Shown here: positions 22,830 to 54,602 of the stretch, one piece after another
Layout: every line of letters starts with the position of its first letter
Numbering within the stretch: the stretch's first letter is position 1
Source of the DNA: a virus
Lineage: Duplodnaviria > Caudoviricetes
IMG/VR virus record: IMGVR_UViG_3300042295_002426
Span: 1-57,323 of that record
Reading direction: 5' to 3' (one strand)
Length of the DNA stretch: 57,323 bases
Made by a program: the position numbers and the translations under genes
The notes under the pieces: generated by a model
What the model was told of the DNA's origin: nothing
Database searches by the model: none
The model's input: only the letters and a program-made list of their open reading frames with translations

Positions 22830-22864
22830 GCTGGCAGGATAGCAGAAAGTCGCGTGAAAAACAG

Positions 22865-22894
22865 TTGACTTTTGATGCCACAAAAGGCGATATT
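22865..22894 (+). promoter_or_regulatory. Candidate late promoter for the capsid operon
   Basis: TTGACT-N18-GATATT, with TGATGCCAC in the spacer. Confidence 0.45.
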
Positions 22895-34725: not shown

Positions 34726-34730
34726 AGATC

Positions 34731-35609
34731 ATGTCAGCACTCGGACTACTCGGAAGCATCGGCGGTGGGCTCCTCAATTTCGGGGCGGCAAAAGGTCTTG
34801 CCGATGACATCAGCAAGGCCCTCGACGTGCAGGGGCAGGCATGGGGCCTCGGCTACAACCTCCGCGACGTCTACGGCAAAAAGCCGGTGCTGCCGAAGTG
34901 GAAGTTCAACTATGGCGATCTCCAAAAGATGATGGCCGAGATGGGGACGCGAGCGGGAACCGTGGGTGTCGAGAATGCGGCCAAAGTAGCCGAGGGTTCA
35001 AACAAGGCCGCGGTCGAGCAACTTGAGGCCGCGATGCGCGAGATGTTCGGGGGACGCGGTTCCTTCGAACGCCAGCGTGATCTTGCAAGCCGCAACACGG
35101 AGGACATGCTCGCGGGAAAGCTGAGTCGCTCGGCCGAAAACCAACTCGCGCGCCGAGCCGTTTCCTCGGGTGCTGTGGGGCTTGGCGAGGGTGCTGTGAG
35201 CGACGCCTATGCCGGTTATCTCGGGCTCTCCCGGGAGGAAATCGTCACGCGCGGCAACCAGCAATACCAGAGCCTCTATCAGGGCTACCGCCAGGCGCTT
35301 CCGTTCGTCTCGGCTGCGGAGATGATGCCCTACACGACCCTTCAGATGGGACAGGCCGTGGGTGCCCGGATGATGCTGGAGGAGAACAAGTATCGCGCGA
35401 ACTACAACCGTGCGCTGGTGAAGGCGGCTCCAGACCCGATGGCGCAGGGTCACGTCTTTGCCGAAATGCAGCGCGACATGGCGGTCGCGGGAGCCAACTA
35501 CCAAGCCAACAGCCAACTCGGAGGAATGTTCTCCTCGGCGCTGAACGGCCTCGGCGGCCTCATGGGTGGCCAATCGGCGATGAGCTTCAACCCCACAGGA
35601 ATGTTCTGA
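34731..35609 (+). CDS. Putative ejection (internal virion) protein
   Basis: Gly/Ala/Gln/Met-rich helical protein with Gly-rich ends; first of three increasingly large genes. Confidence 0.65.
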   Translation: MSALGLLGSIGGGLLNFGAAKGLADDISKALDVQGQAWGLGYNLRDVYGKKPVLPKWKFNYGDLQKMMAEMGTRAGTVGVENAAKVAEGSNKAAVEQLEAAMREMFGGRGSFERQRDLASRNTEDMLAGKLSRSAENQLARRAVSSGAVGLGEGAVSDAYAGYLGLSREEIVTRGNQQYQSLYQGYRQALPFVSAAEMMPYTTLQMGQAVGARMMLEENKYRANYNRALVKAAPDPMAQGHVFAEMQRDMAVAGANYQANSQLGGMFSSALNGLGGLMGGQSAMSFNPTGMF

Positions 35610-39700: not shown

Positions 39701-42700
39701 CGCGGGCTCGATGTCCCAGACGAGCCGATCCTGGTTCGCGAAATCATCGACTTCACCCAGGGCGACGCGCGGAGTTTCGTGGTGGAGTCCAATCCGAAGC
39801 GGGGCGGAATGCTCGCGGAGTCCGTTTCCGAACAGGCCCTCCTCGACTCCGAGACCATCGGCGACGAGGTCCTCGCCAATCTCACCTTCACGGCGGATGG
39901 AAACCTTTCGGCCGGATCACTCGCTGCGGTGGCGTCGAAACTGGAAGAGGCGAACCGCGGGATCACGCGCACGCTCTCGGGTCAGTTCGACCGCTCCGAG
40001 GCTGGCCGCCGGGTCATGGCCGCGTTCCTTTCTCGGCTCGTCTCAAAGGCCGGGCGAGACGCCTCCGATGTCGCGTCGATCCTCGAATCCGATGGCGGCA
40101 AGCGCGCGGTGTCGGCGATCGCCCAGGCGGCTCCGCGACTCTCGAAACTCGATAACGATCTCTCGCTCGCATCGCCCATCGTGGAGTCGCTCTTGGAATT
40201 CAAATCCGGTCTCAGTGCGGTTTCAAAGGGAGAGTTTGCCAACGTAAGCGACTGGTTTGAGAACCGGACCAGTGAGCTGCTCGCGGCCAATCTCGATCCC
40301 GTCTCGCGAGAGATCCTCAAGGAAATGGCCGGGTCGGTGACTTCCGGGGCGGCCATGAGAGACCTCCTCGCCGAATATCTCGTGGACGCCGAGGCGGAAC
40401 AAAAGGAGCGTGACAGCGCATCTTCAACAGGTGATATTTTCGGTGATGAGCGAGCCAATCAAGCCCCCGAAGACATCTTCCGAAAGCTCGGTAGGATCAA
40501 AGGCCCGGACCCCGGTGTCGGCTCTGGAACTGTTGAGGCGAGCCAGCGCGAGACTGGAGGCCAAACGGAAGGCAGGCCAACCACCGGCCCAGCTGTAGGC
40601 CCGGAGGCCGAAGGCCAACTCATCCCCGAGGGCGAGATGCCCTTCAACCTCTCCGGCGAGACCATCGTCGAACCGCCGCCGGTCGAGCCCGAGGATACCC
40701 GCACCGATGCCGAGCAGGATGCGGACAGCGGACAGGGCCGCCTCTTTGAGGATCGCATCACCACGCCGCCACTCCGGCCGCGACAGGACCGGCTGGGCCG
40801 GTTGGGCCGGTTGGTCGATGGGTTCTCGGCGCGTCATCCCGAGAAACGCCCCGAGACGCCTCCTGCCCGCAACGAGGCGCAAGAGGAGCACCTGCGTGCC
40901 ATCAAGGCCGGAGTCGAGGAATACTTCGGCGGCGACGTCCCCGCCGGTGTTCGCGTTGTGTGGGATCCCGCGGCGGTTTGGGATGCCCAGTTCCACCGCG
41001 CGATGCGAATCATCGAGGCCAACGCGGCACTGATTAGGCGCGGCGAGATTTCGTTCAAGCTGGACCATGAGATTGGTCACCTCCTTTTCTCGGACAAACA
41101 GTTCGCAGCAGACTTTGAGACGCTCTGGAAGTCGCTCCCGAAAACCGTGCAAGATCGGATCAGCCGCGGCGTCCAGGGTCATGTCGAGCGGGGATACTAC
41201 GCCGAGGACGAGGCCTTTGAGGAAACCCGTGTCAGGGCTCTCGAACACATCCGCAGGGCGGCCTCCAGCGAAAATGCCGACCCTGCGATGAAGCGTGCGT
41301 GGCGCCGGTTTGTCCGCGCCGTGATCCGTGCGTTCAATCGTCTCACCGGCCGCAAGCCGGTCGACCCGCAGCGTCTCGCCGCGGCCATGATCGAGATCGG
41401 TGTCGCGAGGATGCGTGGCGATTCGGGCAGCGCCGGTGTCGGTAGTATGTCTTCCGTTGTCGAGTTCGAGACGTTCAAGGATTGGGCGCTTCGCGAAATC
41501 GCTGACAATCAGTTCCTCCAGGAGGACGCGGGGCGTCTCTGGGTGGCGTCCGATGTGCGGGGCAACGTCAACGAGGTCTTCGGTTCGTTCGCAGATGCCG
41601 ACGAATACTTCCGGACGATGTCAGGGAAAGGCGAGTTTCTCTGGGATGTGACCGAATCCTACGAGCGAATGGTGGGCGGGATCCCTGCTCGAAAGCCGGA
41701 TGGACCGATCAAGGCAAGCGAGGCGAAGCAGGCTTTCTATGGGCTCGAGCCCATGCCTGGCGAAACGCCAAGCGAGGCCGGAAACCTCCCGCAACTCACG
41801 CCGATGGGCAGGCCCGTCACTCCGGCGGTGTTGCCGGACCATGCGCTCCGCTACGGCTTGCCTTCTGATGAGGATTCCGGCCGCGATGCCACCCCCATGC
41901 GTCGCGTCCCGAATCCGGGTAAGCCCTACCGGCCGGGGCAAGCGATCTTCTCGATTCGTGAGGCGGGCGAAGTCGGATGGGAAGACCGGGCGCAACGGTT
42001 GATGCGGCGCATCGATCAGATGTATGCGACCGGCCGGGTCGAAGAGGTCGAAGATCTCGAAGCTGAACTGGAAGCCATCCTTGAGCGAGCGGACACCGAT
42101 CTCGACGGGATGGACGAGGGCGACGACGCCGACCAGGTGAGGGAAATGCAGACCAGCGACCTGTCGGAGTTTGATTCCGCGCCGCCGGATCCCGAGGCGC
42201 AGCTGGTGCAGTTCTGGCTCCAGTGGAACGGTCAAGGCGGGCCGTCGTACATGAGGGAATTGGCGAGGCGAGATAACGCCACCTTCGGCCAATATGTCCG
42301 GAACTCCCTTGGTGATTCCGCCTACGTCCTCAATGATGGAGTCACCGACGAACAGATCGAAGAAGCCGCCGAAGAGGCCTTCGCCAACTACGAGCGAAGG
42401 AGGAACGCGATGCTTCGCGCACTTGAGCGTCGCCGTAGCATCTCATCGATCGCCGCGGATGACCCAGGCCAGACCACGCCTGAACCACCGCTCTCCATCG
42501 ACGGTCCGATCGAATCGGACATCGACGCCGCGGCCGAGGCCCTAGCCAATCTGGAGTCGGCCTTCCGGGTTTCCTTCTTGGTGGGCGACTTCGACGGGGC
42601 GGCATCCGCGATGGACTCCGCGAACGTCGAGACCTTTACGGCCTTTGCCGAGAAGCTGATCCGGTTGGCCGCGGCCGGTGACCCAAGCGCCGAAGGAATG

Positions 42701-45700
42701 CTGGAGTGGATCGAGGCGATCAACTCCGGGACGCGCGTGGACACCGACATCGATCCGGAGCTCGAGGATCTGATCCGCAAGATGCGTGAGCGGTTCCCCA
42801 ATCGACGACGCAGGGGTAGGGCCGACCATCTCCAGAAGTTCCACTCTCCGGACGCATTCGCCGCCGCGTTTGCCGCGTTCGTGGCCGCGGGCGACTTCCA
42901 GAGCGCCTACGAGGCCGTGCGCGACACGGATGACAGCATCCGCATCCCGGTGATGAAGCGGTTCCTCAAGGCGGCCAAGGGCGGTGATCCGGTGGCGAAG
43001 AAGAACTACGAGTGGATGAGTCACATCTTCAATGGCACGACGCCACCTGGAGTCTCTCAGCCCGGTGCCGGAACCTCCGCACCTCCTCCGGGGAGCGCCC
43101 CGCCACCCGGGTCGTCAACCCCGCCACCGGGAGCTTCGGCGCCTCCGCCAAGTGCGCCTCCGCCGGTCGCGCCGAAGACGCCGCCTCCCCGGCCCAGTGG
43201 AGTCGAGAAGCTGAACATTCCCGCCCTGGTGTTCCTCGCCAAGCGCATGGGGACCACGCCGATCGTGAGACGGTTCCGGGCACGGGGGATGTATCAAACG
43301 ACCAACCCACGCGGCCAGCGCCAGGACAATCCGAAGATCTTCGTGAACGAGTTCCTCGCGAAGGAGGACTGGCAACAAGCGGCGCGGACCCTCGCCCACG
43401 AGATCGGTCACTTCATCGACTACATCATCGCCGCTGTCCCAAGCGCAGACATCGTCAAGAGCCTCATCCCGCTGCAAGCCGAGCGGGACCAGTTCATCGA
43501 GGACATCTTCGGTGTCGGGACGGCCTACACTGCGGCGCGGAAATACATGATGGAGGAGGCTGTCGCGCTTTCGAAACGGATGCGCGGAGACTTTTCGCCG
43601 TCGGACTCCTACCGGATGTCGGCGGCTGAGCTCTACGCCGATTTTCTCTCGGCGGTGATGATCGACCCGGATCTGGCGTTCGACGTCGCCCCGCTGATTT
43701 CGCACGCCTGGTTCGCCCACCTCAACCAGAAGCCGGAGGCGGAATCAGCGTGGAACCTGATCCAAAACCTCATCAAGGGGGACGGGCTCCACGATGCGAT
43801 CAGGAGCGGCCGCGTCACCGAGCAACGCGCCGCCATGACCGAAGTGCGGAACCGGGCGGACAGACGCAGCGCCCTCCACGCCGGCTGGAAGAAATTCCGC
43901 AACGGTCTCGCGGGGGCCCTCTGGAGCCGTTACCTCCCGGCTGCCGCCAAGGGCGCGAGCAGTTCCGGTCGATGGGAGTTCACCAACCGGTGGTGGAAGG
44001 CGGTGACCCAACCGAACGAGAACGACTTCCTCGCGCGGATGGAAGGCGCGGAGATCGAAGCCTCCCAGCGGGGGAGCGTCCTGCGGATCAAGATGCAGCG
44101 CGACGTCTACGACCCGCTGATGCGGCACGGCATCGACACGGCGCAACTCGACGAATACCTCACCTTCTTCCAGATCCTCAACGAGGACACCGCGACCCGG
44201 CAATACCTCAACGCGAATCCTGACGAGTTCCGCGAATTCCTCCTCTGGCTCGACGACACCGTCTCGCTGTCGCGCGAGGCAGAGATTCAGGGCGCGGCGG
44301 ATGCTGACTTGGATGAAATCGGAGCGACCATGGTGGGGCACATCCAGCTCCACGATCTGTTCGATACGGTGTATGCGGCGGCGCAGAGTATCGATGCCCC
44401 GGACATCGCGGAGCTGGGCCTCTTTGCCTTCGACATCGCCCGCTACCAGTGGAACCAGGACGGGCACACTCCCGAAACCGCCCAGCAGGGCATGGAATTC
44501 CTCCGCCGCGAACTGGGCGACGAACGCTTCAAGGTGCTTCGCGATGCGTCGAAGGCGTTCCATCAGAACCTTGCCGGGATCGTCCGCGAGGCGAATTCCG
44601 TGGGGCTCTTCAGCGACCGGATCTGGAACGAGAAGATCAAGACCAACCTCGGCAACTACGTGCCCCGAATGGTGCTGGAGTATTTCACCGGCGAGATGTC
44701 GGCCTCGATCAAGCAACGGCGCGGCAGCGTGAAGGCGACCTTGCCCAAGCAACTCGCGGGCGAAGGCCAGGCGATGGTGCTGCTCCACAAGATCGCCAAG
44801 CAGAAGCAGATACTGATGATCCTGGAACAGGCTGCCGACCTCGGGTGGAACAAGGAGATCCGGCGGATCAACATCCCCAAGGGAAAAAATGTCGAGGCGC
44901 TCGCCAAGAAAATGGCGAGGGAGGAAGGCAAGGGACTGCGCGGCTACTGGGTGAAGGGCAAGTGGCGGTGGCTCGAGTTCGATGACATCGACGTGGTGCG
45001 GTGGATGGACTCCGCCTCCCCCACTGATCTGAAGTTTCTCTACGACATCGCCAAGGCGAACGAGAGCTTCTGGCGTCTCTCGACGACCGTGCTCAATGCC
45101 TCCTTCGCGCTCTACAACAACTGGGCGAGGACGGTCGCCGGGTTGCCGATGGACTATGGGCCGAGGGCGGTCGCGCACACGATCCGCCAGATCCCGGAAG
45201 CGGTGAACTGGGCCAAGGCGAGCCTGGGCCGCGCCGCGCCCTCTGACCGTGTCCTCGATCTGGTCGAGCGCGGCGTGCTGCCGGCCTTTGGCCAATACAC
45301 CGCCGGAGACCTGCTGCTCTCGCACGACGACCTCATCGACCAGATCTCCTCCGGCCTCGTCGGCATCGACGCGCTTCGTCGCGGTTCCCGTGCTTTCGGG
45401 CCCCTCGAAAAAGTGGCGAACCTGCCAGGGCTCCGACAGGTCATCGAGTTTCTGGGGATGTTCACCGGCACGGCCGAAGCCCTACCGAAGCTCGCGGTCG
45501 AGTCCCTCCTCGAAAAGCGCGGACTGCCGCAGTGGGAGCGGGATCGTCTCGCCCGGATGGAGGGCATCCCCAACACCGGCCTCTCGGCCGGGAAATACGG
45601 ATCCTATGCCGGACTGCTCTCCCTGTTTTACCGGGTCTGGGCACAGGGCACGCGCCGCATGATGACCTTGCCTTTCAATCCCAGAACGCGGGGAGCCTGG

Positions 45701-46738
45701 TGGATGGGCAACCTCCTCGGCTACGGCGCCATCAAAGCCTTCTACTCGGCAGCCGCGGCGGGGATCCTCGACGCCATGATGGGTGGAGGCGAAGACGAGG
45801 AAAAGCAGGTCGATTGGCAGGAGGCTTACACCCGAGTCTCGCCCTACAAGATCCGCATGGCCGACGCCTTTTTCCTGGGGTGGGTGCTCCCGGACGGATC
45901 CTACGAGCCGCCCTACGGCCACACCTCCATCCCAGGGAACTGGACGCCGATGATGTGGCGAATCCCCTACACGGAATCGGGTCGATTGACGGCCCCCTTG
46001 GCTTCGCTCTGGACGAGTCTGGCGATGCCGAGCAGCCCCTTGCGGCCGCGGAACTGGAGGGAGGGCATGCGCGTGGTCCGCGATGTGGCCCAGAACTCGA
46101 TCCTGCCAAGTGCCAACCCGGTTTTCGAAAACGGCGGATACGCCCTCTCGATCTTTAACCCGAGATCACCCTACGACGCCTATTCCGGCCGCGATGTCGT
46201 GCCGGAGGACGAGTGGGACGCTGGCATCCCTTCGCGTGCCTGGGGCATCACCCGGCACCTCCTCGAAGAGACTCCGGCCCGGAACGTGGTCCCTGCGGTG
46301 AAGCAGGGAATCCGCAACGAAAACGCGCTGCCACCCTGGGCCAGAGCGGTCATGAGCATCCCCGGAGCCTCCGCGGCGATCTCCTTCGACAACAGTCCGA
46401 TGGCCGCCGACTACATGGACCGCATCGAGGAGCGGGACTCCGTGAACCGCGAAGCGCGGCGACTCCGGGGACCGAAGGCGATGGAGGCGGTTTCCCTGCG
46501 ATCCCGGCTCAACCGGATCCCTTCGGAAAAGCGGACGCCGGATGAGCAGGCCAAGATCGAAGTCCTCAACGCCTGGTATCGGGAAGCCTACCTCGGCTCT
46601 GATCTCTATCCCGGCCTCTTCCGGGAACTCCAGGCCGCGGCAAGCGGGATGGAGGGAATTGATGAGAAAGCAGCGAAGAAGGCGCTGGAGGAGACGGCAA
46701 GCGAGGTGCTGCGGGAGATTGGCGGGGTGGGGAGGTGA
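36785..46738 (+). CDS. Giant polyvalent internal virion protein (ddrB-ParB-like domain, two HEIGH zincin motifs)
   Basis: 3317 aa; GAPAV..VLAGNGR..PILVRE at ~39400-39850; HEIGH at ~41066 and ~43397; Pro-rich linkers. Confidence 0.8.
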   Translation: MGNFFEDFIFSAKNGHIYLGDYGEWTPEEIIDGSWLKQFRPSPKPSVAPAPKAKPGDTESAKGAQPSPSTPAPEAPPPDPSPEPAVATPAPMPTLDAVIDHGQKAGKSPEEIAEAAKKWRDKARTWGEENFRETDPNKWFAGNRKLDARIRDELAAIQGREATERIATEIRDPGDRQRFAEQYSQSNGDLNAFEEGSPARSLAEILNQEVFQSPKFTLRGGGSGPMPFSTEAGVPLGDFETQIRPEGDLDVVIRVDDEEKGSVRKAITIPEITDEDIEAARRKAEEEATQLRQIERTTNQGLRDDLADEPVQRGYDVGYQGNLKLRKEKAERAAETARLKAGQSESRANVLADPGRGRLLLLREQVEEQIKADKDLKKVVGDVALGEDFWRGVQQTHLGARMAVADATGNEEEKTKVRELIGDLSQIYPGSTNLQFRGGAGAFASDASMVLGGMLPTMMVSLGTGGAAAVSGAAVGGLTRTAALSPIGLSAYGNAYATMLNEADALDEIGRREEAAQRRKDARVYALAQAGVEVGTELIFKEEMFRVGGKGFFSKVGAGAAQNTVEELLAATGNAELDREFRDELPKEGQIARETLLGTVVGGLMQVPGGAVEVFLPKPQPGTPAGNATPPPGTSPGATPPPSSAPPPGATPPPSSPPPGTAPPPPATSSPPSSAPPPDTTPSAPPPGTQLTVPGDAALYQIGGRSFAWTRWGWFDRDANKLIDPLAELGLVVQLDEARRRLNSGEQPVSPEVTLNPGETPRILSIDGNRFFMIDPAGRGWLEVFPATGKPSQLVNFALEGSSGVETLRRLQAKVAELRGETPADPNETPDPPVEPTPPVETPSNESDPAPEIPERPADGTVSSGKPNGAKARFRWRIVSRSDIEAMVVRDIEEAQTRQRKGNVASDEQRERMATGLDPDLVMESPVSSMGAPAVFEGKVLAGNGRADGISEAYRRGLAADYEARIRAFATERGLDVPDEPILVREIIDFTQGDARSFVVESNPKRGGMLAESVSEQALLDSETIGDEVLANLTFTADGNLSAGSLAAVASKLEEANRGITRTLSGQFDRSEAGRRVMAAFLSRLVSKAGRDASDVASILESDGGKRAVSAIAQAAPRLSKLDNDLSLASPIVESLLEFKSGLSAVSKGEFANVSDWFENRTSELLAANLDPVSREILKEMAGSVTSGAAMRDLLAEYLVDAEAEQKERDSASSTGDIFGDERANQAPEDIFRKLGRIKGPDPGVGSGTVEASQRETGGQTEGRPTTGPAVGPEAEGQLIPEGEMPFNLSGETIVEPPPVEPEDTRTDAEQDADSGQGRLFEDRITTPPLRPRQDRLGRLGRLVDGFSARHPEKRPETPPARNEAQEEHLRAIKAGVEEYFGGDVPAGVRVVWDPAAVWDAQFHRAMRIIEANAALIRRGEISFKLDHEIGHLLFSDKQFAADFETLWKSLPKTVQDRISRGVQGHVERGYYAEDEAFEETRVRALEHIRRAASSENADPAMKRAWRRFVRAVIRAFNRLTGRKPVDPQRLAAAMIEIGVARMRGDSGSAGVGSMSSVVEFETFKDWALREIADNQFLQEDAGRLWVASDVRGNVNEVFGSFADADEYFRTMSGKGEFLWDVTESYERMVGGIPARKPDGPIKASEAKQAFYGLEPMPGETPSEAGNLPQLTPMGRPVTPAVLPDHALRYGLPSDEDSGRDATPMRRVPNPGKPYRPGQAIFSIREAGEVGWEDRAQRLMRRIDQMYATGRVEEVEDLEAELEAILERADTDLDGMDEGDDADQVREMQTSDLSEFDSAPPDPEAQLVQFWLQWNGQGGPSYMRELARRDNATFGQYVRNSLGDSAYVLNDGVTDEQIEEAAEEAFANYERRRNAMLRALERRRSISSIAADDPGQTTPEPPLSIDGPIESDIDAAAEALANLESAFRVSFLVGDFDGAASAMDSANVETFTAFAEKLIRLAAAGDPSAEGMLEWIEAINSGTRVDTDIDPELEDLIRKMRERFPNRRRRGRADHLQKFHSPDAFAAAFAAFVAAGDFQSAYEAVRDTDDSIRIPVMKRFLKAAKGGDPVAKKNYEWMSHIFNGTTPPGVSQPGAGTSAPPPGSAPPPGSSTPPPGASAPPPSAPPPVAPKTPPPRPSGVEKLNIPALVFLAKRMGTTPIVRRFRARGMYQTTNPRGQRQDNPKIFVNEFLAKEDWQQAARTLAHEIGHFIDYIIAAVPSADIVKSLIPLQAERDQFIEDIFGVGTAYTAARKYMMEEAVALSKRMRGDFSPSDSYRMSAAELYADFLSAVMIDPDLAFDVAPLISHAWFAHLNQKPEAESAWNLIQNLIKGDGLHDAIRSGRVTEQRAAMTEVRNRADRRSALHAGWKKFRNGLAGALWSRYLPAAAKGASSSGRWEFTNRWWKAVTQPNENDFLARMEGAEIEASQRGSVLRIKMQRDVYDPLMRHGIDTAQLDEYLTFFQILNEDTATRQYLNANPDEFREFLLWLDDTVSLSREAEIQGAADADLDEIGATMVGHIQLHDLFDTVYAAAQSIDAPDIAELGLFAFDIARYQWNQDGHTPETAQQGMEFLRRELGDERFKVLRDASKAFHQNLAGIVREANSVGLFSDRIWNEKIKTNLGNYVPRMVLEYFTGEMSASIKQRRGSVKATLPKQLAGEGQAMVLLHKIAKQKQILMILEQAADLGWNKEIRRINIPKGKNVEALAKKMAREEGKGLRGYWVKGKWRWLEFDDIDVVRWMDSASPTDLKFLYDIAKANESFWRLSTTVLNASFALYNNWARTVAGLPMDYGPRAVAHTIRQIPEAVNWAKASLGRAAPSDRVLDLVERGVLPAFGQYTAGDLLLSHDDLIDQISSGLVGIDALRRGSRAFGPLEKVANLPGLRQVIEFLGMFTGTAEALPKLAVESLLEKRGLPQWERDRLARMEGIPNTGLSAGKYGSYAGLLSLFYRVWAQGTRRMMTLPFNPRTRGAWWMGNLLGYGAIKAFYSAAAAGILDAMMGGGEDEEKQVDWQEAYTRVSPYKIRMADAFFLGWVLPDGSYEPPYGHTSIPGNWTPMMWRIPYTESGRLTAPLASLWTSLAMPSSPLRPRNWREGMRVVRDVAQNSILPSANPVFENGGYALSIFNPRSPYDAYSGRDVVPEDEWDAGIPSRAWGITRHLLEETPARNVVPAVKQGIRNENALPPWARAVMSIPGASAAISFDNSPMAADYMDRIEERDSVNREARRLRGPKAMEAVSLRSRLNRIPSEKRTPDEQAKIEVLNAWYREAYLGSDLYPGLFRELQAAASGMEGIDEKAAKKALEETASEVLREIGGVGR

Positions 46739-46784: not shown

Positions 46785-46880
46785 ACAGAACGTCAAAGGT
46801 GTGGCACGGCGGAGATTGAACGTCCAGAGCGAAGCGAACGAGAGACGTTGCCCGCCGTTGCCACCACTGTCTTGTTCGGC
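46785..46880 (-). repeat. attC site (distal, cassette 7)
   Basis: GCCGAAC-AAGACAGTGGTGGCAACGGCGG...CCGCCGTGCCACACCTTTGAC-GTTCTGT. Confidence 0.9.
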
Positions 46881-46887
46881 TTATTCA

Positions 46888-47322
46888 TTACCTCGGATCT
46901 GTCCTGTGAATTGATATTTCATTCGACAGGGCTGTTGCCGTCGCTTGTATGTAAATTCTCTTCTTTGATATCGTAATCGGGTGCTTCGAACTGAATTTGA
47001 GCAGATCCCAGTGTGAGAGTTCAAGAGTATAGCTACCTTCTGGGAGATCGAGTTCCAACGAATCTCCAATCTTCAGTTCTTTGGGAGTTCCTCCGTCCAC
47101 CGATATAGTGATTTTGCCACTTAGCGCATGCGTGACGCGACTTGAATTATTGATTACTACAAGATTAGGGCTCTCATAAGGAACTTCAATGACCTTCTGA
47201 GATTCTATGATCTTATTGCCATCGACCTTCGTCGTTGATTTAGAGGATGGCCTGAGGAAGAACGCAATCACGACAAGTGCTATTGCGCAAATGACGATTT
47301 TAGGATTAATGGACTTTTTCAT
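46888..47322 (-). CDS. Cassette 7 ORF: membrane-anchored beta-sandwich (PEGA-like) protein
   Basis: N-terminal TM; ISVDGG..LDLPEGSYTLEL. Confidence 0.75.
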   Translation of the reverse strand: MKKSINPKIVICAIALVVIAFFLRPSSKSTTKVDGNKIIESQKVIEVPYESPNLVVINNSSRVTHALSGKITISVDGGTPKELKIGDSLELDLPEGSYTLELSHWDLLKFSSKHPITISKKRIYIQATATALSNEISIHRTDPR

Positions 47323-47331
47323 AGATTCTTA

Positions 47332-47420
47332 GCCGAACGTCTAGCTCATCCACGGCGGGGAGGGAAGTCCGAAATCAAACGGGAACGTTATCCGCCGTTG
47401 GATGGAGCGTCTTGTTCTGC
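47332..47420 (-). repeat. attC site (cassette 6)
   Basis: GCAGAAC-AAGACGCTCCATCCAACGGCGG...CCGCCGTGGATGAGCTAGAC-GTTCGGC. Confidence 0.9.
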
Positions 47421-47461
47421 TAGAATGTGTTTTCGTATGGTGCAATCGATGGAGAAAAATG

Positions 47462-47923
47462 TTAGATGTCTTGATATGCTCTGAGTTCCGACGCCTTTGC
47501 ACTGAGACCCTCAATTCGCAGGTGCTCCTCATCATAGGACGTGTGTCGGATCGTGTTGAGGATCCACCCGTCAGATCCATTGCAATCATAGAGAACTTCC
47601 TGCAGAATTTCGAGGGCGAAATAGCTTAACGCCGCTTCCCGCAACTTGGGATCTTCTAGAATCTTATCTACGGAGGGCCAATCGCATTCCCTTAAAGCTA
47701 TTTCGAAGTCTAACCCATCATCAGGGAATTTCCTCGCATCTTCGACAAACTCTTCTAACTCCGCGTCTAGAACTCGTCTAAGACACGAATGAGGCAACGT
47801 AAGCTCGTAAGCAAGATCTCGGACACCTGGTGTCCGCCAATGTTGGTCGAAGTTCATGTGGCGAACCGCGACCTTCTGAAGGTCGCGGTTCACGCCGTCA
47901 ATTGTGATCGTCGCACTTGTCAT
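47462..47923 (-). CDS. Cassette 6 ORF: acidic cytoplasmic hypothetical protein
   Basis: ATG a few nt after the GTT core; no TM. Confidence 0.75.
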   Translation of the reverse strand: MTSATITIDGVNRDLQKVAVRHMNFDQHWRTPGVRDLAYELTLPHSCLRRVLDAELEEFVEDARKFPDDGLDFEIALRECDWPSVDKILEDPKLREAALSYFALEILQEVLYDCNGSDGWILNTIRHTSYDEEHLRIEGLSAKASELRAYQDI

Positions 47924-47928
47924 TTAGA

Positions 47929-48021
47929 GCAGAACGTCTCGGATCAGGCGACGGCGAGCGCAAGACGTTGCTGACACGACAAATCGCCTTCGAGCCGTTG
48001 CCTGCATCCGTTTTGTTCGGC
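47929..48021 (-). repeat. attC site (cassette 5)
   Basis: GCCGAAC-AAAACGGATGCAGGCAACGGC...GCCGTCGCCTGATCCGAGAC-GTTCTGC. Confidence 0.9.
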
Positions 48022-48038
48022 CTTGGTTGAGGCATAGG

Positions 48039-48569
48039 TTAAGTGTGACTGCTGACCAATGCTGCTCGGATAGCTTCTTGCCAAACTAAGTTCTGATTCA
48101 CAACAAACTTGTGAGTCTCGCCAGAGGTCAACGTGATCTGAAGTCCGTTCGGTATCATCCCGAGTGACTTTGTGGCCTCTACTTTGACAATGTCGGAAAG
48201 TAGCGCAGCCCATTCGTGATTCTGAATGTTCAGCTTGTGAGATCGAAAGAAAAGCCTGCCGGTGGTAAGCCAGAGGTAGCCACGAACTCCCTCGGCACCT
48301 TTGAAGTGGTTCGCGAGGCCCTCGTGGGTCACGTCTTCCCCGGCAAAATCAGGGCGATCAATCACGAAGCGCTTGGCCCGACCTTTAGCAAACCTAGCCA
48401 TTAGAACCCCGAAAATCACCCCTGCCAGCAACCCTCCGCTCATGCCCAGAATCCAATTGCCACTCTGGACAGAGAATACCACCCCCATCGGAAAGCCGTA
48501 GAGCAAGGCCGCGAGCCATTTGCTTCTGGCAGTGTTAGCGGGGGTTGAGGATGCTGGCTCGGTTGTCAT
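48039..48569 (-). CDS. Cassette 5 ORF: 2-TM + GRAM/PH-like domain protein
   Basis: EGLANHFKGAEGVRGYLWLTTGRLFFRSH..PNGLQI..FVVN. Confidence 0.75.
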   Translation of the reverse strand: MTTEPASSTPANTARSKWLAALLYGFPMGVVFSVQSGNWILGMSGGLLAGVIFGVLMARFAKGRAKRFVIDRPDFAGEDVTHEGLANHFKGAEGVRGYLWLTTGRLFFRSHKLNIQNHEWAALLSDIVKVEATKSLGMIPNGLQITLTSGETHKFVVNQNLVWQEAIRAALVSSHT

Positions 48570-48592
48570 TGGGCGGGTGACTTTGGTGCTTG

Positions 48593-48716
48593 GCCGAACG
48601 TAAAGCGCTGGCACCCGCTACCGGGAGCGCCCCTTCGATTCTGGCTGAGGTTTGTCACTACCGGCCGACTTCGACTCCGGAGCGGTAGCGGGTTGTCCAG
48701 GCGCGGCTTGTTCGGT
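48593..48716 (-). repeat. attC site (cassette 4, long type)
   Basis: ACCGAAC-AAGCCGCGCCTGGACAACCCGCTACCGCTCC...GCTCCCGGTAGCGGGTGCCAGCGCTTTAC-GTTCGGC. Confidence 0.9.
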
Positions 48717-49190
48717 CAATTTTCTCGCCTGAAGGATCCCGCTCGAAATAGCCTTACGCTGCGCTTCCGTGAATTCAAGCAGCTCTCTTTTGTATCCACC
48801 CTTTACCGGAATTTCCTTCGATACCGATAATTTCGAGAGATCGTCCAGTGAAAAAAAGCAAATATACCCGCCATTCTTTTCGGTCATGAACTCCATATTT
48901 AAGTAAGGATCCCCCTCGTGCCACCAAGCTGCAAACATCCGAATATTTGATTCCTTGGCTTGCGACTTTAGGATTTCTATCAAAAAATCAGGAAACTTGA
49001 AGCTCTGGCCTCCTACCGTAAGAACATACTTTTCCTTGTCAAAATGAGCAGGGTTATATGCATCAGGCAATCCTACCAGGTCTCCATCATTGAGAAATAT
49101 CTCCTTATCGAGGTGCGCTTGAACGTTGCTGGCTCCAAATAGCAATATCGCTGAAAGAAGGGCCAGTTTACTAAAAACTCGTGAATTCAT
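48618..49190 (-). CDS. Cassette 4 ORF: secreted hypothetical protein
   Basis: Signal peptide ending VQA; C-terminus reads through the attC (EQAAPGQPATAPESK). Confidence 0.75.
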   Translation of the reverse strand: MNSRVFSKLALLSAILLFGASNVQAHLDKEIFLNDGDLVGLPDAYNPAHFDKEKYVLTVGGQSFKFPDFLIEILKSQAKESNIRMFAAWWHEGDPYLNMEFMTEKNGGYICFFSLDDLSKLSVSKEIPVKGGYKRELLEFTEAQRKAISSGILQARKLTEQAAPGQPATAPESKSAGSDKPQPESKGRSR

Positions 49191-49212
49191 GATAATGAGT
49201 GTGCAGTCTTTC

Positions 49213-49307
49213 CCCGAACGTTTGAGTGCTTCTACGGGCGCGGTTGAGTGGAGATTGAAGTGAAATTGAAAAGCTTATGGCCCGTTAGGAGGCACGACTT
49301 GTTCTGC
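49213..49307 (-). repeat. attC site (cassette 3)
   Basis: GCAGAAC-AAGTCGTGCCTCCTAACGGGCC...GCCCGTAGAAGCACTCAAAC-GTTCGGG. Confidence 0.88.
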
Positions 49308-50327
49308 TTCTTCGTTAGTGCTCGTGAAGAACAAATGCTCGTTGGTTTGGAACCATTTGATTCGCGCATCGCAATCGGCGATCAACTTCCTGATATCCGC
49401 CAACTGCGCCTTCCCAAAAGAACCTTTCTCTGCATTACGATTCTTAAAAAACTCACCTGGATTCAGGGAAACATCTGCTTCCTTCGTGTTGTGATTCGCT
49501 GTCACAGAATATCTCCTACCTTCCTCATCTCCCGAAGTGAATGTATATGCATGACCAGCTTCAACAGCTTCCAACGCTAATGCAATCTTCTGGAGCAGGC
49601 CAGCGACCCAGTCTCCGCCCAGTGTTCCATTCAACTCACCGTCTCCCGAATACAGGCATAGCGTATGTCCGATTGTGTATTGAGGATCTTCTGTGCGTGA
49701 GTACGAGTTGACTGAAACCTCGTAGCCAATTCCCTTGCCTGAAACCGTCCCAATCGACGAATCGAGGTAATATCCTTTAGCTTGTGGAGCTCTCGCCTCT
49801 TCGTTCGGCACAGGCATTGTCTCCTCGACCAACAACTTTCTGAACCATGTCTGCCCGGCTCTCGCCTGGGCAAGCGCGGCCCTGACTTTGGCTGCTTCGC
49901 CCGGCAGGAACTCCGCCTGCTCTTCTCCACGACGGATTCGAATCATCTTCTTTCCATCCACCTCAACGACTTCATAGATGGTCTCCTTCTCGCCTCTGAA
50001 GGTCTTTGTCTTCACCGATTTCCGAAACTCCTTGCCATCCTGTGCCGCATCTCCTGCCGCCATAAATACTTCCAAATCTGTATCTGGAAGCATGCGCTGA
50101 GCGGCTTCGAACTCAAAACAGTTGACCTCAACCGAGGTCGATCCATTTGGTTCCTCAGCACTTCGTGAAACGCTGACCGAGACATGCAGGCGATCTCCTT
50201 CGTTTCTTCTGTCCATCCAATCATTCGTCTCAACGCTGACGTGAAACGCGTTAAATGGAATCAGATCTCCTCCAGACAATGGAAGAGCCAGAAGTAGCGA
50301 TACTAGAAGTGATGGAAGCGTCTTCAT
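49275..50327 (-). CDS. Cassette 3 ORF: secreted hypothetical protein
   Basis: MKTLPSLLVSLLLALPLSG signal peptide; ends inside the attC. Confidence 0.78.
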   Translation of the reverse strand: MKTLPSLLVSLLLALPLSGGDLIPFNAFHVSVETNDWMDRRNEGDRLHVSVSVSRSAEEPNGSTSVEVNCFEFEAAQRMLPDTDLEVFMAAGDAAQDGKEFRKSVKTKTFRGEKETIYEVVEVDGKKMIRIRRGEEQAEFLPGEAAKVRAALAQARAGQTWFRKLLVEETMPVPNEEARAPQAKGYYLDSSIGTVSGKGIGYEVSVNSYSRTEDPQYTIGHTLCLYSGDGELNGTLGGDWVAGLLQKIALALEAVEAGHAYTFTSGDEEGRRYSVTANHNTKEADVSLNPGEFFKNRNAEKGSFGKAQLADIRKLIADCDARIKWFQTNEHLFFTSTNEEAEQVVPPNGP

Positions 50328-50332
50328 TTTCT

Positions 50333-50390
50333 GCAGAACGTCAAGCGCAGGGGAGGGCTGCAAGCCCTTCCCTGTCGCGATTTGTTAGCT
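50333..50390 (-). repeat. attC site (cassette 2, 58 bp)
   Basis: AGCTAAC-AAATCGCGACAGGGAAGGGCTTGCAGCCCTCCCCTGCGCTTGAC-GTTCTGC. Confidence 0.88.
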
Positions 50391-50777
50391 TGGTTTGCTG
50401 GTGCGGTTCCGTCGCGCGCCCCTAATGAGCGCGAATACAAATGAGATGCTTCCTGCCAAGACTGCGCCGATCAGGAACATCACGAGCGGGTGTTCGCCGT
50501 TTATTGTGGCGATTGAGAGAAATATCATCGATCCAACGACACATCCACCGAGCGTATAGTTTTTGATCGTTTCCATGCCAAGTTTTCGAAAGATCAGGAA
50601 GGACAACAAGAGCGGAGGCCATGAAAAGGCGTAGGCAACAAGACTGGTCCACCCCAAGTAGTTCCTGAAACTTTCATGACTGAATGAATCGATTCGCATT
50701 GCCGACCCAAGAACGGTCAGGATCAAAGGAGCAATCAGAAAGGCGTAGATGATTCTTGCTGGCTCTGAGATCTTCAA
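50385..50777 (-). CDS. Cassette 2 ORF: 4-TM membrane protein
   Basis: Four hydrophobic segments; the TAA stop lies in R''; TTG start. Confidence 0.75.
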   Translation of the reverse strand: MKISEPARIIYAFLIAPLILTVLGSAMRIDSFSHESFRNYLGWTSLVAYAFSWPPLLLSFLIFRKLGMETIKNYTLGGCVVGSMIFLSIATINGEHPLVMFLIGAVLAGSISFVFALIRGARRNRTSKPS

Positions 50778-50784
50778 TTTATTG

Positions 50785-50844
50785 AGCTAACGTTGGAGGC
50801 CATCGGACGGGCGTCAGGCCGTTCGATGCGCCGCCTAGTTCGGC
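50785..50844 (-). repeat. attC site (cassette 1, 60 bp)
   Basis: GCCGAAC-TAGGCGGCGCATCGAACGGCCTGACGCCCGTCCGATGGCCTCCAAC-GTTAGCT. Confidence 0.88.
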
Positions 50845-51092
50845 TTTTCGGTTTCAGTCTCTGTGATTGGAGGATACGCGAATCGAATCAGAAACGGAGC
50901 ACCCCGTAGCAGATAAAGCCCAATGACGAAATAGGTGCCTCCCGTGATAAAATATGAGATCAAGTAGCCTGGACTATCCTCTGGAAGGCCGACAATCGTG
51001 GCCACTCCGTAAACAAGATACCAAATCGCATAGATGAACAGGGAGAGCCCGAAGGTCCGGATGATAATTCCAAAAATGTCGCGAGGTTCCAT
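50835..51092 (-). CDS. Cassette 1 ORF: small 2-TM membrane protein
   Basis: MEPRDIFGIIIRTFGL..YLLRGAPFLIRFAYP. Confidence 0.78.
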   Translation of the reverse strand: MEPRDIFGIIIRTFGLSLFIYAIWYLVYGVATIVGLPEDSPGYLISYFITGGTYFVIGLYLLRGAPFLIRFAYPPITETETEKPN

Positions 51093-51123
51093 GATTTTGG
51101 TATGAAGCTTCTCTGATTTTTCT

Positions 51124-51199
51124 GCCGAACGTTGTTTAGCCACAAAAAATTGTGGACTAATCTGATTCGTCCACAATTTCTTGTGGGCGAATCGGATTC
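51124..51199 (-). promoter_or_regulatory. attI-like recombination site with upstream nested palindrome
   Basis: Minus strand GGCTAAACAAC-GTTCGGC with no attC hairpin; preceded by CCACAA-N4-TTGTGG twice in inverted arrangement (51140-51186). Confidence 0.7.
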
Positions 51200-51403
51200 T
51201 CAATTACGCCTCCGATTCTTCATAATCGGCCACCGAAGTCAAGCCTCGGGCGCGTCCCTGCTCCCACGATGGAGTGGTCGAACCCGCCGAACCCGTAGGC
51301 GGGCCCCGTTTCGGCTGCCCGGGCCTGCTCCGGGGTAAGTTTCGCACCCCCATCCCAAGTTTTTCCTTGAAAAACAACTGATCCATGATGCCGTTAGAGG
51401 GAG

Positions 51404-52063
51404 ATGGAGAACGTGTTTTTTAACGTTTTGAAGGATCGCGAGTCCCCTCCCGGCGGATGGAGGTGGCATCACCCCGTTACCGGCCAAATCTTCTCCCGCG
51501 AAAGCTTCTCCGACCTGCTCGAAAGCGCCCAGCGAACACTGCTCAATCTGGGCCTCGACCCGTCCCTCGCCTCGACCCAGATCCACCAAGCCACGGCGGC
51601 CAACCTCATTCAGCTCGGTCGAAACGACCTCGTCCAGGTCACCAAGGAAGTCCCCCGCTCTGCCGAGCAATACACCGCCGGCGCCAAAGCGACCTTCCTC
51701 AAGTGGTGGCGCGAGAGTCCGATCTTCGGTCTCCTCCAAGGCAAGGCGAGCCGCGGCGAACCCGTCTTTGTCCCTGACGACGTCGCCAACGGTCGCGCCC
51801 TCGTCTGCGCGAAGTGCCCCCACAACGTCATCCCGGCCGGGAAGGGGTGGCTGCAAAACTGGACCGACGGACAGATGCTGAAATCCGTCGAGGGCCGCAC
51901 GACCGCGAGCCAGGACCGTCTCGGCGTCTGCGAGGTCTGCTCGTGCGAGCTGCGGGCAGCGGTCTGGTGGCAACCGGACATCATCGCCACGACCACGCGC
52001 GACGCGAAATTCGCCCGTCGTCTGCCACGGCATTGCTGGAAGCGCAAGATCCTAGAATTATGA
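51404..52063 (+). CDS. Cys-rich phage protein (first gene of the portal operon)
   Basis: SPPGGWRW, CAKCPHN, CEVCSC, PRHCW; paralog remnant at 2902. Confidence 0.8.
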   Translation: MENVFFNVLKDRESPPGGWRWHHPVTGQIFSRESFSDLLESAQRTLLNLGLDPSLASTQIHQATAANLIQLGRNDLVQVTKEVPRSAEQYTAGAKATFLKWWRESPIFGLLQGKASRGEPVFVPDDVANGRALVCAKCPHNVIPAGKGWLQNWTDGQMLKSVEGRTTASQDRLGVCEVCSCELRAAVWWQPDIIATTTRDAKFARRLPRHCWKRKILEL

Positions 52064-52347
52064 TACCCCAACCCACCACCGAAACCGAAGCGCCGGCCCA
52101 GCCGGATAACGTCACCCCCATCGGCATTCCCGCTGACGATGCCGCTCCGACCCCGGAGCAGATTGAAGCCGCCCGGAAGGCAGTCGAGGAAGACATGCGG
52201 GAAGCGCTCCCCTTCAACCGTCTCGCCATCCATGTCGGATTTCAGCGCGCCATCCAGGGGGCGGTGGCGGGAAACAAGCCAGAGAAGGTCGGGCCGCTCT
52301 GCGCTGCCTTCCGCAGCTTCGCTGAAGCCGAATCTCTCCTCAAATGA
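52060..52347 (+). CDS. Hypothetical protein
   Basis: ATGA-coupled on both sides. Confidence 0.65.
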   Translation: MIPQPTTETEAPAQPDNVTPIGIPADDAAPTPEQIEAARKAVEEDMREALPFNRLAIHVGFQRAIQGAVAGNKPEKVGPLCAAFRSFAEAESLLK

Positions 52348-54602
52348 CCACAACCCCTCCGGCGGAAGCAGACGCCCTCCGCGCCCCCGATCCGGCGCGT
52401 CCCTCAGCGGGCCGCGTCATCGATGCGCCGCGCGTCCGCGGCCTGATCTCCGCCGGTGCCCGGAACCTCGAACACCGCTTGGAACAATATCGGCTGGTCG
52501 AGGACGCCTACGACCGTGTCCCGCCCGATACCGAGGAGCAACTCCGCGCCGACGGTCTCGGGTGGGCCGCTAACGTCGACTGGGGTGGAATGGAGGCCGG
52601 GATCGATTCGGCGGCATCGCCCTACGTCAATCTCCTGACCGAGCCGGAGCCTTTCGTGAAGTTCTGCTCCTACGCACAGATCCCGAACCTGCACCATGCC
52701 CTCACCGAGCTCGCCCGCGCCGACGCGGAGCTGCTGCGCGACTGGCCGGACTGGATCTACGAGGCCCAGATGATGATCCACAACCGGGTCGCGCATGGGA
52801 TGGGCATCTTCTATTTCCCCCAGCCGCACGGATGGCACTTCCAGTCGCTGCACCCGGCGAACCTGATCACCCCGCCGAAGGCCGGGCTCAATCCCGAGCG
52901 GTGGCCCTGGTGCGCCGTTGTCACGGAGTTCGAGGTGCCGGATCTGCTCGCCAAGCTGACCGACAAGGACGAGGCGCGGAAGCAGGGCTGGAACCCGCCC
53001 GCGGTGCGCGATGCCATCGAAAAATACCGGCGCGGCGACGGCGCCCGGTGGCCCCACAACCTGGACGTCGATCAGGCGGTCCACGGGTTTTCGAACCATT
53101 CCATGATGGGCGTCTTCGACGAGTCGGTCACCATCAAGGGATTCATCTTCTACGTCCGCGAGAGCGACGGGACGATCTCCGAGTATTGGCTGACCAATCA
53201 GGAGGAGGTGGGATTCCTCTACAAACGGCAGAAGCAACAGAGCCGGATGTCGCGGGTGATCAGCGTCTTCCCCCACGGCCTGGGGAGCGGCTACCTCAAC
53301 AAGGTCCGCGGGCACGGCATCAAGAGTCTGCCGTATCACGATCTGGAGAACCGTGCCTTCAACCACTCGATCGATGTGACCTTCCTCGCCTCGAACCTCA
53401 TGCTCCGAGGCAACGGCCAGGATCTGCATCGCCTCCCCGAGATGGTCTTCGGACCGGTGACGGTGATCCCGGAGGAGTTCGCGCTCGAGCAGCAGTCCTT
53501 CCAGAATCCGGCCGGTGGGCTCGTACAGCTCTACCGCGAGATGAACGCGATGCGGGCCAGTCGCAACCAGGTCTTCGGCGGGAACATCGATGTCTCTCCG
53601 AACGTGGACCGCACCGCCTCCGGCGCCCGGATGCGCTACCAGGAACAGACCGGGATCCGAAGCCACGACGTCGCCCGTTTCTATCATCAGGTGCGGATGT
53701 TCCACGCAGCCCGCTGGGAGCGCATGATGGACCCGGAAGCCGCCGAATCCGATCCCGGCATGGCCGAGGCGAAGGAGATGCTGCGACGGGCCATGCTCCG
53801 CGGCTGCCCACCGGAAGCCATCGCGGGCATCTACAAGGTCAACGTGGTGACGGTCTTTGGCGAAGGCGATCCGGTGAACCAGTTTCTCGCCATGATGGAT
53901 GTCCGGGAACTCTACGGCCAACTCACCCCGACGGGCCGGAAGGTCTACGCCCGCGCCACCCTCAACGCCCGCCTCCGCGACCCAGACCTGGTGGATCAGC
54001 TCGTGGGCCGAGAGGATGCCCTCATCGACGAGGCCGACTCCCGGCACCGCCAGATCGCCCAGGGCGAGAATGCCGACTTCCAGAGCAGCGATGTCCGCAT
54101 CGATGTGGCCGAGACCGACAACCACCTCATCCACGCCGGCGAGCACACCGTCTTCACCGAGGACACTCTCGGGCAATTGGGCGAGGGAATCCTGTCGGAG
54201 GAGGATGCGTTCCGGACCGTCTCGCGCGTCCAGGCCCACATGGGCCCCCACCTCGAAATGGTCGCGAGCGATCCTCTGAGCCAGGCCGAGGCCAAGGATC
54301 TCCAGCGACGGTGGGCCGACATCACCAACTCCCTGCGCCAACTCGCTCAGAAGCTCGAAGCGAAGCGACAGCGGATGCAGGAAGAGCAGATGGAGGAGCT
54401 CCGCAACCCGCGCCCATCGGTGAAGGATCAGGAGACCGCGCTGACCGAGGAGGTCAAACGCCAGAGCCTCCTGCGCGAGACTGAAGCAAAGATCACCATT
54501 CTCGAGCGCGAGTCCCGGTTCCGCATGGGGCGAGAAATGGAGACGGCTGCCCAGGAAGGCCGCATCGCCGAGCTCAAACGTCTACCCGTCGAAAACGCAT
54601 GA
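52344..54602 (+). CDS. Putative portal protein
   Basis: 752 aa; DRTASGA motif (cf. RTATE in podoviral portals), DNHLIHAGEH, coiled-coil C-terminus as in P22-type portals. Confidence 0.75.
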   Translation: MTTTPPAEADALRAPDPARPSAGRVIDAPRVRGLISAGARNLEHRLEQYRLVEDAYDRVPPDTEEQLRADGLGWAANVDWGGMEAGIDSAASPYVNLLTEPEPFVKFCSYAQIPNLHHALTELARADAELLRDWPDWIYEAQMMIHNRVAHGMGIFYFPQPHGWHFQSLHPANLITPPKAGLNPERWPWCAVVTEFEVPDLLAKLTDKDEARKQGWNPPAVRDAIEKYRRGDGARWPHNLDVDQAVHGFSNHSMMGVFDESVTIKGFIFYVRESDGTISEYWLTNQEEVGFLYKRQKQQSRMSRVISVFPHGLGSGYLNKVRGHGIKSLPYHDLENRAFNHSIDVTFLASNLMLRGNGQDLHRLPEMVFGPVTVIPEEFALEQQSFQNPAGGLVQLYREMNAMRASRNQVFGGNIDVSPNVDRTASGARMRYQEQTGIRSHDVARFYHQVRMFHAARWERMMDPEAAESDPGMAEAKEMLRRAMLRGCPPEAIAGIYKVNVVTVFGEGDPVNQFLAMMDVRELYGQLTPTGRKVYARATLNARLRDPDLVDQLVGREDALIDEADSRHRQIAQGENADFQSSDVRIDVAETDNHLIHAGEHTVFTEDTLGQLGEGILSEEDAFRTVSRVQAHMGPHLEMVASDPLSQAEAKDLQRRWADITNSLRQLAQKLEAKRQRMQEEQMEELRNPRPSVKDQETALTEEVKRQSLLRETEAKITILERESRFRMGREMETAAQEGRIAELKRLPVENA

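Follow-up and report, generated by a model that had tools for sequence, protein, structure and literature searches.

The 57,323-nucleotide (nt) stretch of DNA analyzed here (hereafter, the window) is the entire IMG/VR record IMGVR_UViG_3300042295_002426, which is classed as a provirus and has a CheckV completeness of 93%. A block at 46785-51262 of this record is an integron that lost its integrase gene and retained its attI site. Near-identical phages differ in this block by whole cassettes, with breakpoints located exactly at the G|TT crossover. We consider it likely that the element is an integrase-less phage integron whose cassettes are exchanged by a host integron integrase (IntI) acting in trans. 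The support for this reading is comparative throughout, and none of it is experimental.

By definition, the block is a cluster of attC sites lacking an integron integrase (CALIN), that is, at least two attC sites without an integron integrase nearby. Seven attC sites lie within 4.1 kb, and six-frame scans of the 57-kb window with TIGR02249 and PF00589 detected neither intI nor any tyrosine recombinase gene, in agreement with the preliminary description of this DNA, which was made from its letters and open reading frames (ORFs). Read from the portal side, the block consists of the intI stump with a Pc-like promoter inside it, attI, and then seven promoterless cassettes, each with an attC site at its end. 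A complete integron has an intact intI adjoining attI; in the window, this position is occupied by a stump of about 17 codons without a start codon.

The preliminary description had reported seven co-oriented ORFs, each with its own attC site of 58-124 bp, at 46785-51199, and we reproduced the sites and their lengths. Position 46785 is indeed the outer end of attC7; the other boundary was set too early, as the block continues through attI and the intI stump to about 51262. The G+C content of the block (46785 to about 51260) is 0.48-0.52 versus 0.61-0.67 in the flanks. All seven ORFs are on the minus strand, and each has an attC-like site behind or overlapping its 3' end. The lengths of cassettes 1 to 7, calculated from the G|TT positions, are 339, 452, 1120, 620, 664, 597, and 547 nt, respectively.

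Cassette differences between near-identical phages

L046, a 5.8-kb contig from a different metagenome, encodes a portal protein that is 99% identical to that of the window. The two sequences align from the end of the giant gene preceding the array up to the last attC site (93.8% over 692 nt) and from attI through a gene encoding a 219-amino-acid (aa) protein into the portal gene (97.3% over 2080 nt). Between these junctions, L046 contains six cassettes, one of which is common to the seven cassettes of the window, and the rest differs. The common cassette, cassette 1, matched L046:2855-3201 as a whole (100% over 347 nt), compared with 93.8-97.3% for the backbone. An extra cassette of L046 is located exactly between the G of attI and the TT that opens cassette 1, with junctions reading ...AAACAACG|TTAGCAG... 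and ...CGACG|TTCGGCAGAAAAATC... At the distal end, the window and L046 carry different last attC sites followed, after the G, by the same TTCTGTAAAAATTGG flank; this arrangement fits later attC x attC deletions or stepwise attI filling. The preliminary description had named an assembly chimera as one way in which its proposal could fail and a differently loaded site in a related phage as one way in which it could be strengthened. L046, an independent assembly, reproduced both phage/array junctions, which shows that the array is not a chimera, and it represents such a differently loaded phage.

Contigs from the Logan assemblies of four lake or freshwater metagenomes, including X2 and X10, were mapped on the window. 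One X2 contig joined attI to cassette 2, skipping the 339 nt of cassette 1 (50788 to 51128), and other X2 contigs contained cassette 1. One X10 contig joined attI to cassette 3, skipping 791 nt (50335 to 51127; cassettes 1 and 2), and the depth of X10 was zero over 50414-51115. Contigs of both samples started exactly at 51128, the crossover point, as expected from an assembly graph that branches at the attI crossover. The summed X2 contig depth over attC5 (47840-48073) was 1883 versus 11-100 over the rest of the stretch; this indicates a very high abundance of the attC5 type in the community of that lake. Across lake samples, the same phage backbone was associated with different cassette sets, with breakpoints at the recombination point.

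The attI site, the intI stump, and the attC sites

We located attI at 51124-51196 on the minus strand by its homology to the intI-attI region of complete integrons. Its core, GGCTAAACAACG|TT, places the crossover between 51130 and 51129; the minus strand reads GGCTAAACAACG|TTCGGC, and the TT after the core forms the first bases of cassette 1. A 13-nt half-site (TTGTGGACGAATC-like) occurs three times in the site, two of the copies together making a long palindrome, and the hairpin of these half-sites had a z score of -6.6. The attI region was 88.7% identical over 71 nt (51126-51196 of the window) to L063 (G110:C20), 85.3% identical over 68 nt to L065 (G086:C36), and 86.3% identical over 51 nt to L006 (G001:C389), all of which are loci of the host order with intI above the TIGR02249 cut-off. 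In L063 and L065, the homologous segment sits between intI and the first cassette. This homology, together with the joining of differing first cassettes to the G|TT of the segment, identified it as attI.

A five-way alignment with the starts of IntI ORFs revealed the intI stump at 51197-51262 on the plus strand. In L006, L063, and L065, its homologous counterpart is the first ~17 codons of the IntI ORF (78% identity over 54 nt for L006), and the homology stops near 51262. This call was made because of the nucleotide alignment and not because of tblastn, in which the IntI ORF of L006 gave a collinear but non-significant match to the window (E 4.4). A Pc-like promoter (TTGACT, 16 nt, AAGAAT) was predicted inside the stump at 51215-51242 on the minus strand by a consensus scan (9 of 12 matches). 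It points into the array, and both hexamers are kept in L006, L063, and L065. The window resembles L063 and L065 in its attI core, palindromic half-sites, Pc-like hexamers in the 5' end of intI, and attC family; however, these two are bacterial contigs with a full IntI ORF, whereas the copy in the window is cut ~17 codons into the gene and lies between phage genes. The segment that follows (51263-51364) is common only to L046, and the phage backbone that is common to L003 and L048 begins at 51365. At the proximal end, the breakpoint falls within intI, so the first capture there was not site-specific. Entry of the array by cassette insertion at a secondary GTT of the phage was considered and dropped for the proximal end, where attI and the intI stump are present.

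The attC sites were examined with two covariance models. R1, whose seed consisted of attC6 and two sites of another genome, was run without filters on both strands of all 57,323 bases; R2 had seven training sequences, three of which came from the window. MAFFT placed the 3' arms of 10 attC sites incorrectly, and its alignment was replaced by a three-sequence seed and model-based alignment. R1 recovered six of the seven sites at ranks 1-5 and 7 (113-16.7 bits), rank 6 being the reverse strand of attC6; attC4 was missed, and the best unrelated match scored 12.3 bits (E 0.38). The preliminary description had made its proposal depend on whether a covariance model accepts the sites, and with R2 all seven were the top matches in the window (ranks 1-7, 98.5-18.9 bits, all on the minus strand). 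Rank 8 was the left boundary of the array (13.8 bits); the other matches reached at most 13.4 bits, and unrelated ones at most about 11 bits.

Given on the minus strand from the start of R'' to the end of R', the sites are as follows. attC1 (60 nt, 50844-50785) and attC2 (58 nt, 50390-50333), which are in neither training set, scored 18.9 and 21.8 bits with R2 and 16.7 and 19.7 bits with R1, respectively. attC3 (95 nt, 49307-49213) and attC4 (124 nt, 48716-48593) overlap the 3' ends of the ORFs of cassettes 3 and 4. Taken alone, the fold of attC3 was weak (z +0.2), and the models scored it at 36.6 (R1) and 80.7 (R2) bits. attC4 scored 42.2 bits and attC5 (93 nt, 48021-47929) 30.3 bits with R2, so that the four sites outside the R2 training set scored between 42.2 and 18.9 bits. 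attC5 is 97% identical to a chromosomal site in L036. attC6 (89 nt, 47420-47332) was matched by both models and is 92% identical to an attC site of the L004 prophage, yet the L004 portal is only 43% identical to that of the window. attC7 (96 nt, 46880-46785; R' GTTCTGT) scored 74.9 bits with R2 and 49.6 bits with R1, and its G|TT crossover is the distal end of the array.

All seven sites have an R'' of the form NNNGAAC or CTAAC and an R' of the form GTTCKGY or GTTAGCT, and their repeats end in ACGTT plus four bases. Folded as single-stranded DNA, the bottom strands formed a terminal R box and a long L stem separated by an unpaired spacer, and one arm of the stem contained bulged bases. In attC6 these bases are T and G; the bulges occupy the same arm in attC5 and attC7. 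An alignment of 53 sites, taken from the window, from related phages, and from host genomes, had 89.1% of its cells paired, versus 64.3% after shuffling and 30-44% with the partners slid; it was fitted to the model and is thus biased toward the structure. Of the 22 pairs, 20 had changes on both sides. By structure, covariation, and homology to complete integrons, the sites are genuine attC and attI sites. Six IMG/VR loci that contain the exact 16-nt attI core showed neither the palindromes nor homology to the window and were rejected as chance matches; R2 gave one weak match on them (L056, 15.7 bits, E 0.028).

Proposed exchange by a host integrase and alternative explanations

In the mechanism that we propose, a host integron integrase, present in trans during lysogeny or infection, would insert cassettes at the phage attI, and cassettes would be deleted from the phage array by attC x attC recombination. 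The phage would thereby hold a varying selection from the cassette pool of the host; the cassettes may be expressed from Pc as lysogenic-conversion genes, and the phage could ferry them between hosts. The preliminary description had proposed a landing pad that samples the host pool through IntI in trans. The attI homology and the rewritten locus bear out the landing pad. The action of IntI in trans is what we infer from three features, namely, the lack of a recombinase in cis, attI and attC sites of the host type, and the high frequency of intI in the host order. The proposal likewise supposes that the exchange would occur while the array sits in the phage, and not through homologous recombination with chromosomal arrays. 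With attI and its promoter of the host type kept, shuttling by the phage via host IntI becomes directly testable, since the sites are defined and a candidate integrase is available.

The preliminary description had pointed to the host genome as the place to look for intI, and the search of 150 genomes of the host order was positive: intI was present above the curated TIGR02249 cut-off in 57 of them, and in some of these attI and attC of the same type lay beside it. R2 matches to attC (E<=1e-5; 28 candidates scored per genome) were obtained in at least 71 of the 150 genomes. In at least six (G110, G018, G086, G061, G068, and G104; a lower bound read by eye from the listed rows), an R2 match lay 1-7 kb from intI in divergent orientation. 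G001 contains two intI genes and a phage fragment with an 86% identical portal. G002 and G003 had no intI above the cut-off and yielded 23 and 20 R2 matches (E<=0.01), respectively, scattered as singletons or small clusters over the contigs or chromosome. Integrons are thus common in this Verrucomicrobial order, and prophages receive cassettes from them at more than one locus. A 69-aa intI fragment was observed close to an attC site in G002:C25. In the IntI proteins of L006, L063, and L065, the TIGR02249 region is preceded by a conserved N-terminal extension (~160 aa), and open frames of 430-500 aa recur among the intI matches of the host order.

Several observations weigh against the action of a host integrase on the phage array. 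The step in trans is deduced from sequence comparison, and the record comprises the provirus alone. The joints in X2 and X10 have an attI side of only 23-31 nt and could therefore derive from a chromosomal integron with the same attI, and other Logan joints were off the cassette boundaries (for example, 47417>50791, 48022>48587, and 46794>48015), probably reflecting the attC repeats. Three of the five fetched intI-adjacent loci (L064, L066, and L067) did not have a homologous attI; as two of the five carry this attI, the order holds several attI types. The R' form GTTCKGY departs from the textbook form GTTRRRY (as quoted in PMC9892861) in that position 4 is mostly C and not a purine, and both R1 and R2 were built from the attC family that they were used to detect. 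The provirus would have to be inducible and the array packaged by the phage, and no phage integrase was found by the Pfam ORF scan or by PF00589 in six frames, the ends of the record not having been specifically searched. In addition, the accessory slot varies in relatives without attC sites (L047, L003, and L060), and homologous recombination with chromosomal arrays sharing attI and attC would give the same whole-cassette differences.

Such homologous exchange is the main rival. It belongs to an explanation in which the block is a passive fossil, namely a chromosomal integron fragment (the 5' end of intI, attI, and cassettes) that was captured once by illegitimate recombination and is inert, the differences between phages having arisen through homologous recombination or separate captures instead of site-specific recombination on the phage. 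Host-chromosome attC sites up to 97% identical would provide the homology for exchange, and the proximal breakpoint lies inside intI, away from any recombination site, so that the initial event there was not IntI-mediated. The non-attC genes in the same slot of L047, L003, and L060 and the apparently decayed attC sites that can be seen by eye in L047 also suit a fossil. However, two phages with different last cassettes and the same G|TT and flank are better explained by attC x attC deletion or stepwise attI filling than by random capture, the common cassette is 100% identical in a backbone of 94-97%, and the assembly graphs of two further samples branch exactly at the attI crossover. Taken together, these data make a passive fossil rather unlikely.

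An alternative source of recombination would be a recombinase of the phage itself, belonging to an unrecognised family and encoded either by the 219-aa gene or in the ~7% of the genome that is missing from a record 93% complete by CheckV. The 219-aa gene is divergent beside the array, at the position of intI, has a paralog at 2944-3414, and matches no family. Nevertheless, it is kept between the large terminase (TerL) and portal genes in relatives free of attC sites (L002, L059, and L049-L051), and ordinary integrons that encode their own IntI have the same attI and attC sites; we regard a recombinase of this kind as very improbable. The last alternative, that the repeats are terminators or similar to repetitive extragenic palindromic elements, or that the array was joined to the phage by misassembly, may draw on the absence of matches in an Rfam gathering-threshold scan of the window and on an attC family so highly repeated in metagenomes, as over attC5 in X2, that its repeats could cause chimeras, but it is already contradicted by the junctions in L046, the strong covariation, the presence of the same family beside intI in complete integrons, and the co-orientation of seven of seven sites at ORF 3' ends.

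A broader version of exchange by host IntI can be put forward only tentatively: a Verrucomicrobial phage lineage may keep an integrase-less integron (promoter, attI, and cassettes) as a dedicated rewritable locus that the IntI of each host reloads from local cassettes during lysogeny, with the cassettes serving as conversion or counter-defence genes that are carried onward. Plasmids and transposons are commonly regarded as the vehicles of integron cassettes; phage-borne arrays are already catalogued, and their sites have been shown to function in E. coli. If the proposal is true, integron cassettes would regularly be shuttled by phages among freshwater bacteria, and phages would routinely draw accessory genes from integrons.

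Related systems, phage context, and cassette cargo

Chromosomal CALINs, reportedly described by Cury et al. in 2016 as attC clusters without integrase, are thought to be degraded or dispersed arrays. The array of the window differs from them in that it is phage-borne, keeps attI, and shows turnover between near-identical carriers. Moron or accessory slots of phages are low-GC, independently transcribed blocks on the opposite strand between late operons, and their content varies among relatives. The slot of the window is like them in layout; however, its variation occurs at exact G|TT site-specific junctions.

Phage-borne CALINs were published in 2023, and the array of the window is a further case of them. 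Qi et al. (PMC9892861) report three complete integrons, one In0, and 17 CALINs from 10,705 phage genomes; according to the text of that article, five of six phage attC sites recombine with IntI1, and phages are proposed to spread cassettes. The CALIN of the cryptic Shewanella prophage M16-3 described there starts at a host-type attI and is located between structural genes. It resembles the window in having an attC array without an adjacent integrase, a host-type attI, and phage flanks (tail, capsid, and terminase in M16-3); however, the M16-3 prophage additionally contains a complete integron whose IntI is intact, whereas the window has only the ~65-nt stump, and the host phylum differs (Verrucomicrobiota for the window). 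The virulent phages TJE1, P12002L, and PH101 of the same article are like the window in carrying co-oriented cassettes with attC sites and no integrase, and attC sites of phages were shown there to recombine with IntI1 in trans. As far as its text goes, their arrays are short (three attC sites in TJE1) and no attI is mentioned, in contrast to the seven attC sites, attI, Pc-like promoter, and intI remnant of the window; nor does it compare the content of phage arrays between related phages, for which the window offers natural variants. Relative to the phage arrays in the text of PMC9892861, the larger number of attC sites (seven), the retention of attI, promoter, and stump, the new host phylum, and the natural variants are new. 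A full-text literature search returned no phage-borne arrays beyond those of PMC9892861, whose supplementary tables may list more, and nothing on natural phage arrays that differ cassette by cassette between related phages.

The window represents an uncultured podophage-like provirus of lake Verrucomicrobiota, with terminase, portal, lysis, and replication genes flanking the array on both sides. Phage functions were assigned on both sides of the array from Pfam and PHROG scans of 52 ORFs. These include a Sak4-like annealing protein (5410-6573), an exonuclease and a primase-helicase (8605-10734), a staphylococcal nuclease (SNase)-type nuclease, a Pam3-type holin, an M15 endolysin, TerL (21045-22901, minus strand; PHROG 2, E 1.5e-6), and a 3317-aa protein with a ddrB-ParB domain (36785-46738, plus strand; Pfam scan). 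The stop codon of the 3317-aa gene is 46 nt from the distal end of the array, and L046 has the same junction. On the other side, the preliminary description had placed a portal gene beside the array, and the fold of the 752-aa protein encoded at 52344-54602 (plus strand) agrees with this assignment. The AlphaFold model, built on 20 homologs (predicted local distance difference test score, 71), resembled the podophage portals of SU10, Pan3, VP1, T7, and N4 in Foldseek (E 6e-9 to 1e-5). Identification of the protein required this search by fold: by sequence, it matched no family, tblastn against 50,697 GenBank phage records gave no match, the single-sequence query of a viral contig collection gave no locus, and its profile found nothing meaningful among PDB sequences. 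Its homologs come from Verrucomicrobiota, for example, Prosthecobacter debontii (44% identity).

The array occupies a hypervariable accessory slot upstream of the 219-aa gene (51404-52063, plus strand) and the portal gene. The 219-aa gene is kept upstream of the portal in relatives and had no recombinase match in any library used. Its paralog at 2944-3414 (about 77% identity over ~395 nt) also matched the 219-aa homologs in L003 and L044-L048. Distant relatives have TerL and then directly the portal (L001 and L052), and in L059, from P. debontii, a short homolog of the 219-aa gene intervenes between TerL and the portal; other relatives have a low-GC, mostly opposite-strand gene block before the portal. 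Among 11 loci in which 1.3 kb or more precedes the portal or the 219-aa gene, five had at least one R2 match in the slot at E<0.001 (seven in the window, four in L046, one in L045, four in L004, and one in L005), with two weaker extra matches each in L046 and L045. The other six (L047, L003, L060, L059, L001, and L002) had no R2 match in the slot, and L003, L045, L047, and L060 hold other genes there. In L001, L004, L052, L059, and L060, TerL immediately precedes the slot or the portal on the same strand. The neighbor of the array in the window and L046 is instead the giant gene, and TerL of the window is 24 kb away on the other strand. This relocation is consistent with an inversion that had one breakpoint at the distal end of the array.

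A second prophage locus, L026 (G002:C10), contains two cassettes between homologs of the genes at 31061-33055 and 34677-35609 of the window. At two prophage loci of one genome (L004 and L026), a promoter-like segment of ~200 bp ending in ...TAGACTG|TT precedes the arrays (L004:8260-8480, L004:9390-9450, and L026) and may represent another type of attI-like platform. A ~100-nt segment occurs twice in L004, at 8440-8530 and 5850-5945.

None of the seven cassette proteins of the window had an NCBIfam match, PADLOC gave no match for them or for four scanned proteins of L046, and Pfam gave only one match, below its cut-off. Signal-peptide-like and membrane-like N-termini were judged by reading the sequences. 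Cassettes 1 and 2 encode membrane-like proteins of 85 aa (50835-51092) and 130 aa (50385-50777), respectively, on the minus strand, as are all the cassette ORFs. The ORF of cassette 3 (49275-50363) encodes at most 362 aa, with a signal-peptide-like start after an ATG at 50326, and that of cassette 4 (48618-49190) encodes 190 aa with a signal-peptide-like N-terminus. Cassette 5 encodes a 191-aa protein (48039-48614) with the match mentioned above, to the GRAM domain (E 9.4e-5; 22.7 bits versus a cut-off of 23.6). The products of cassettes 6 (47462-47923) and 7 (46888-47322) have 153 and 144 aa, respectively, the latter with a hydrophobic N-terminus.

Elsewhere in the window, two RHS-repeat proteins are encoded on the minus strand at 11596-13284 and 13639-15393, each followed by a small low-GC ORF (11161-11583 and 13349-13672; local G+C content, 0.44-0.50). 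The R2 scan of the whole window detected no attC site in this region (11161-15393), and the pairs look like phage-carried polymorphic toxin plus immunity modules. The start of the record (1-1002) encodes an IS630-type DDE transposase (PF13358, E 1.8e-31).

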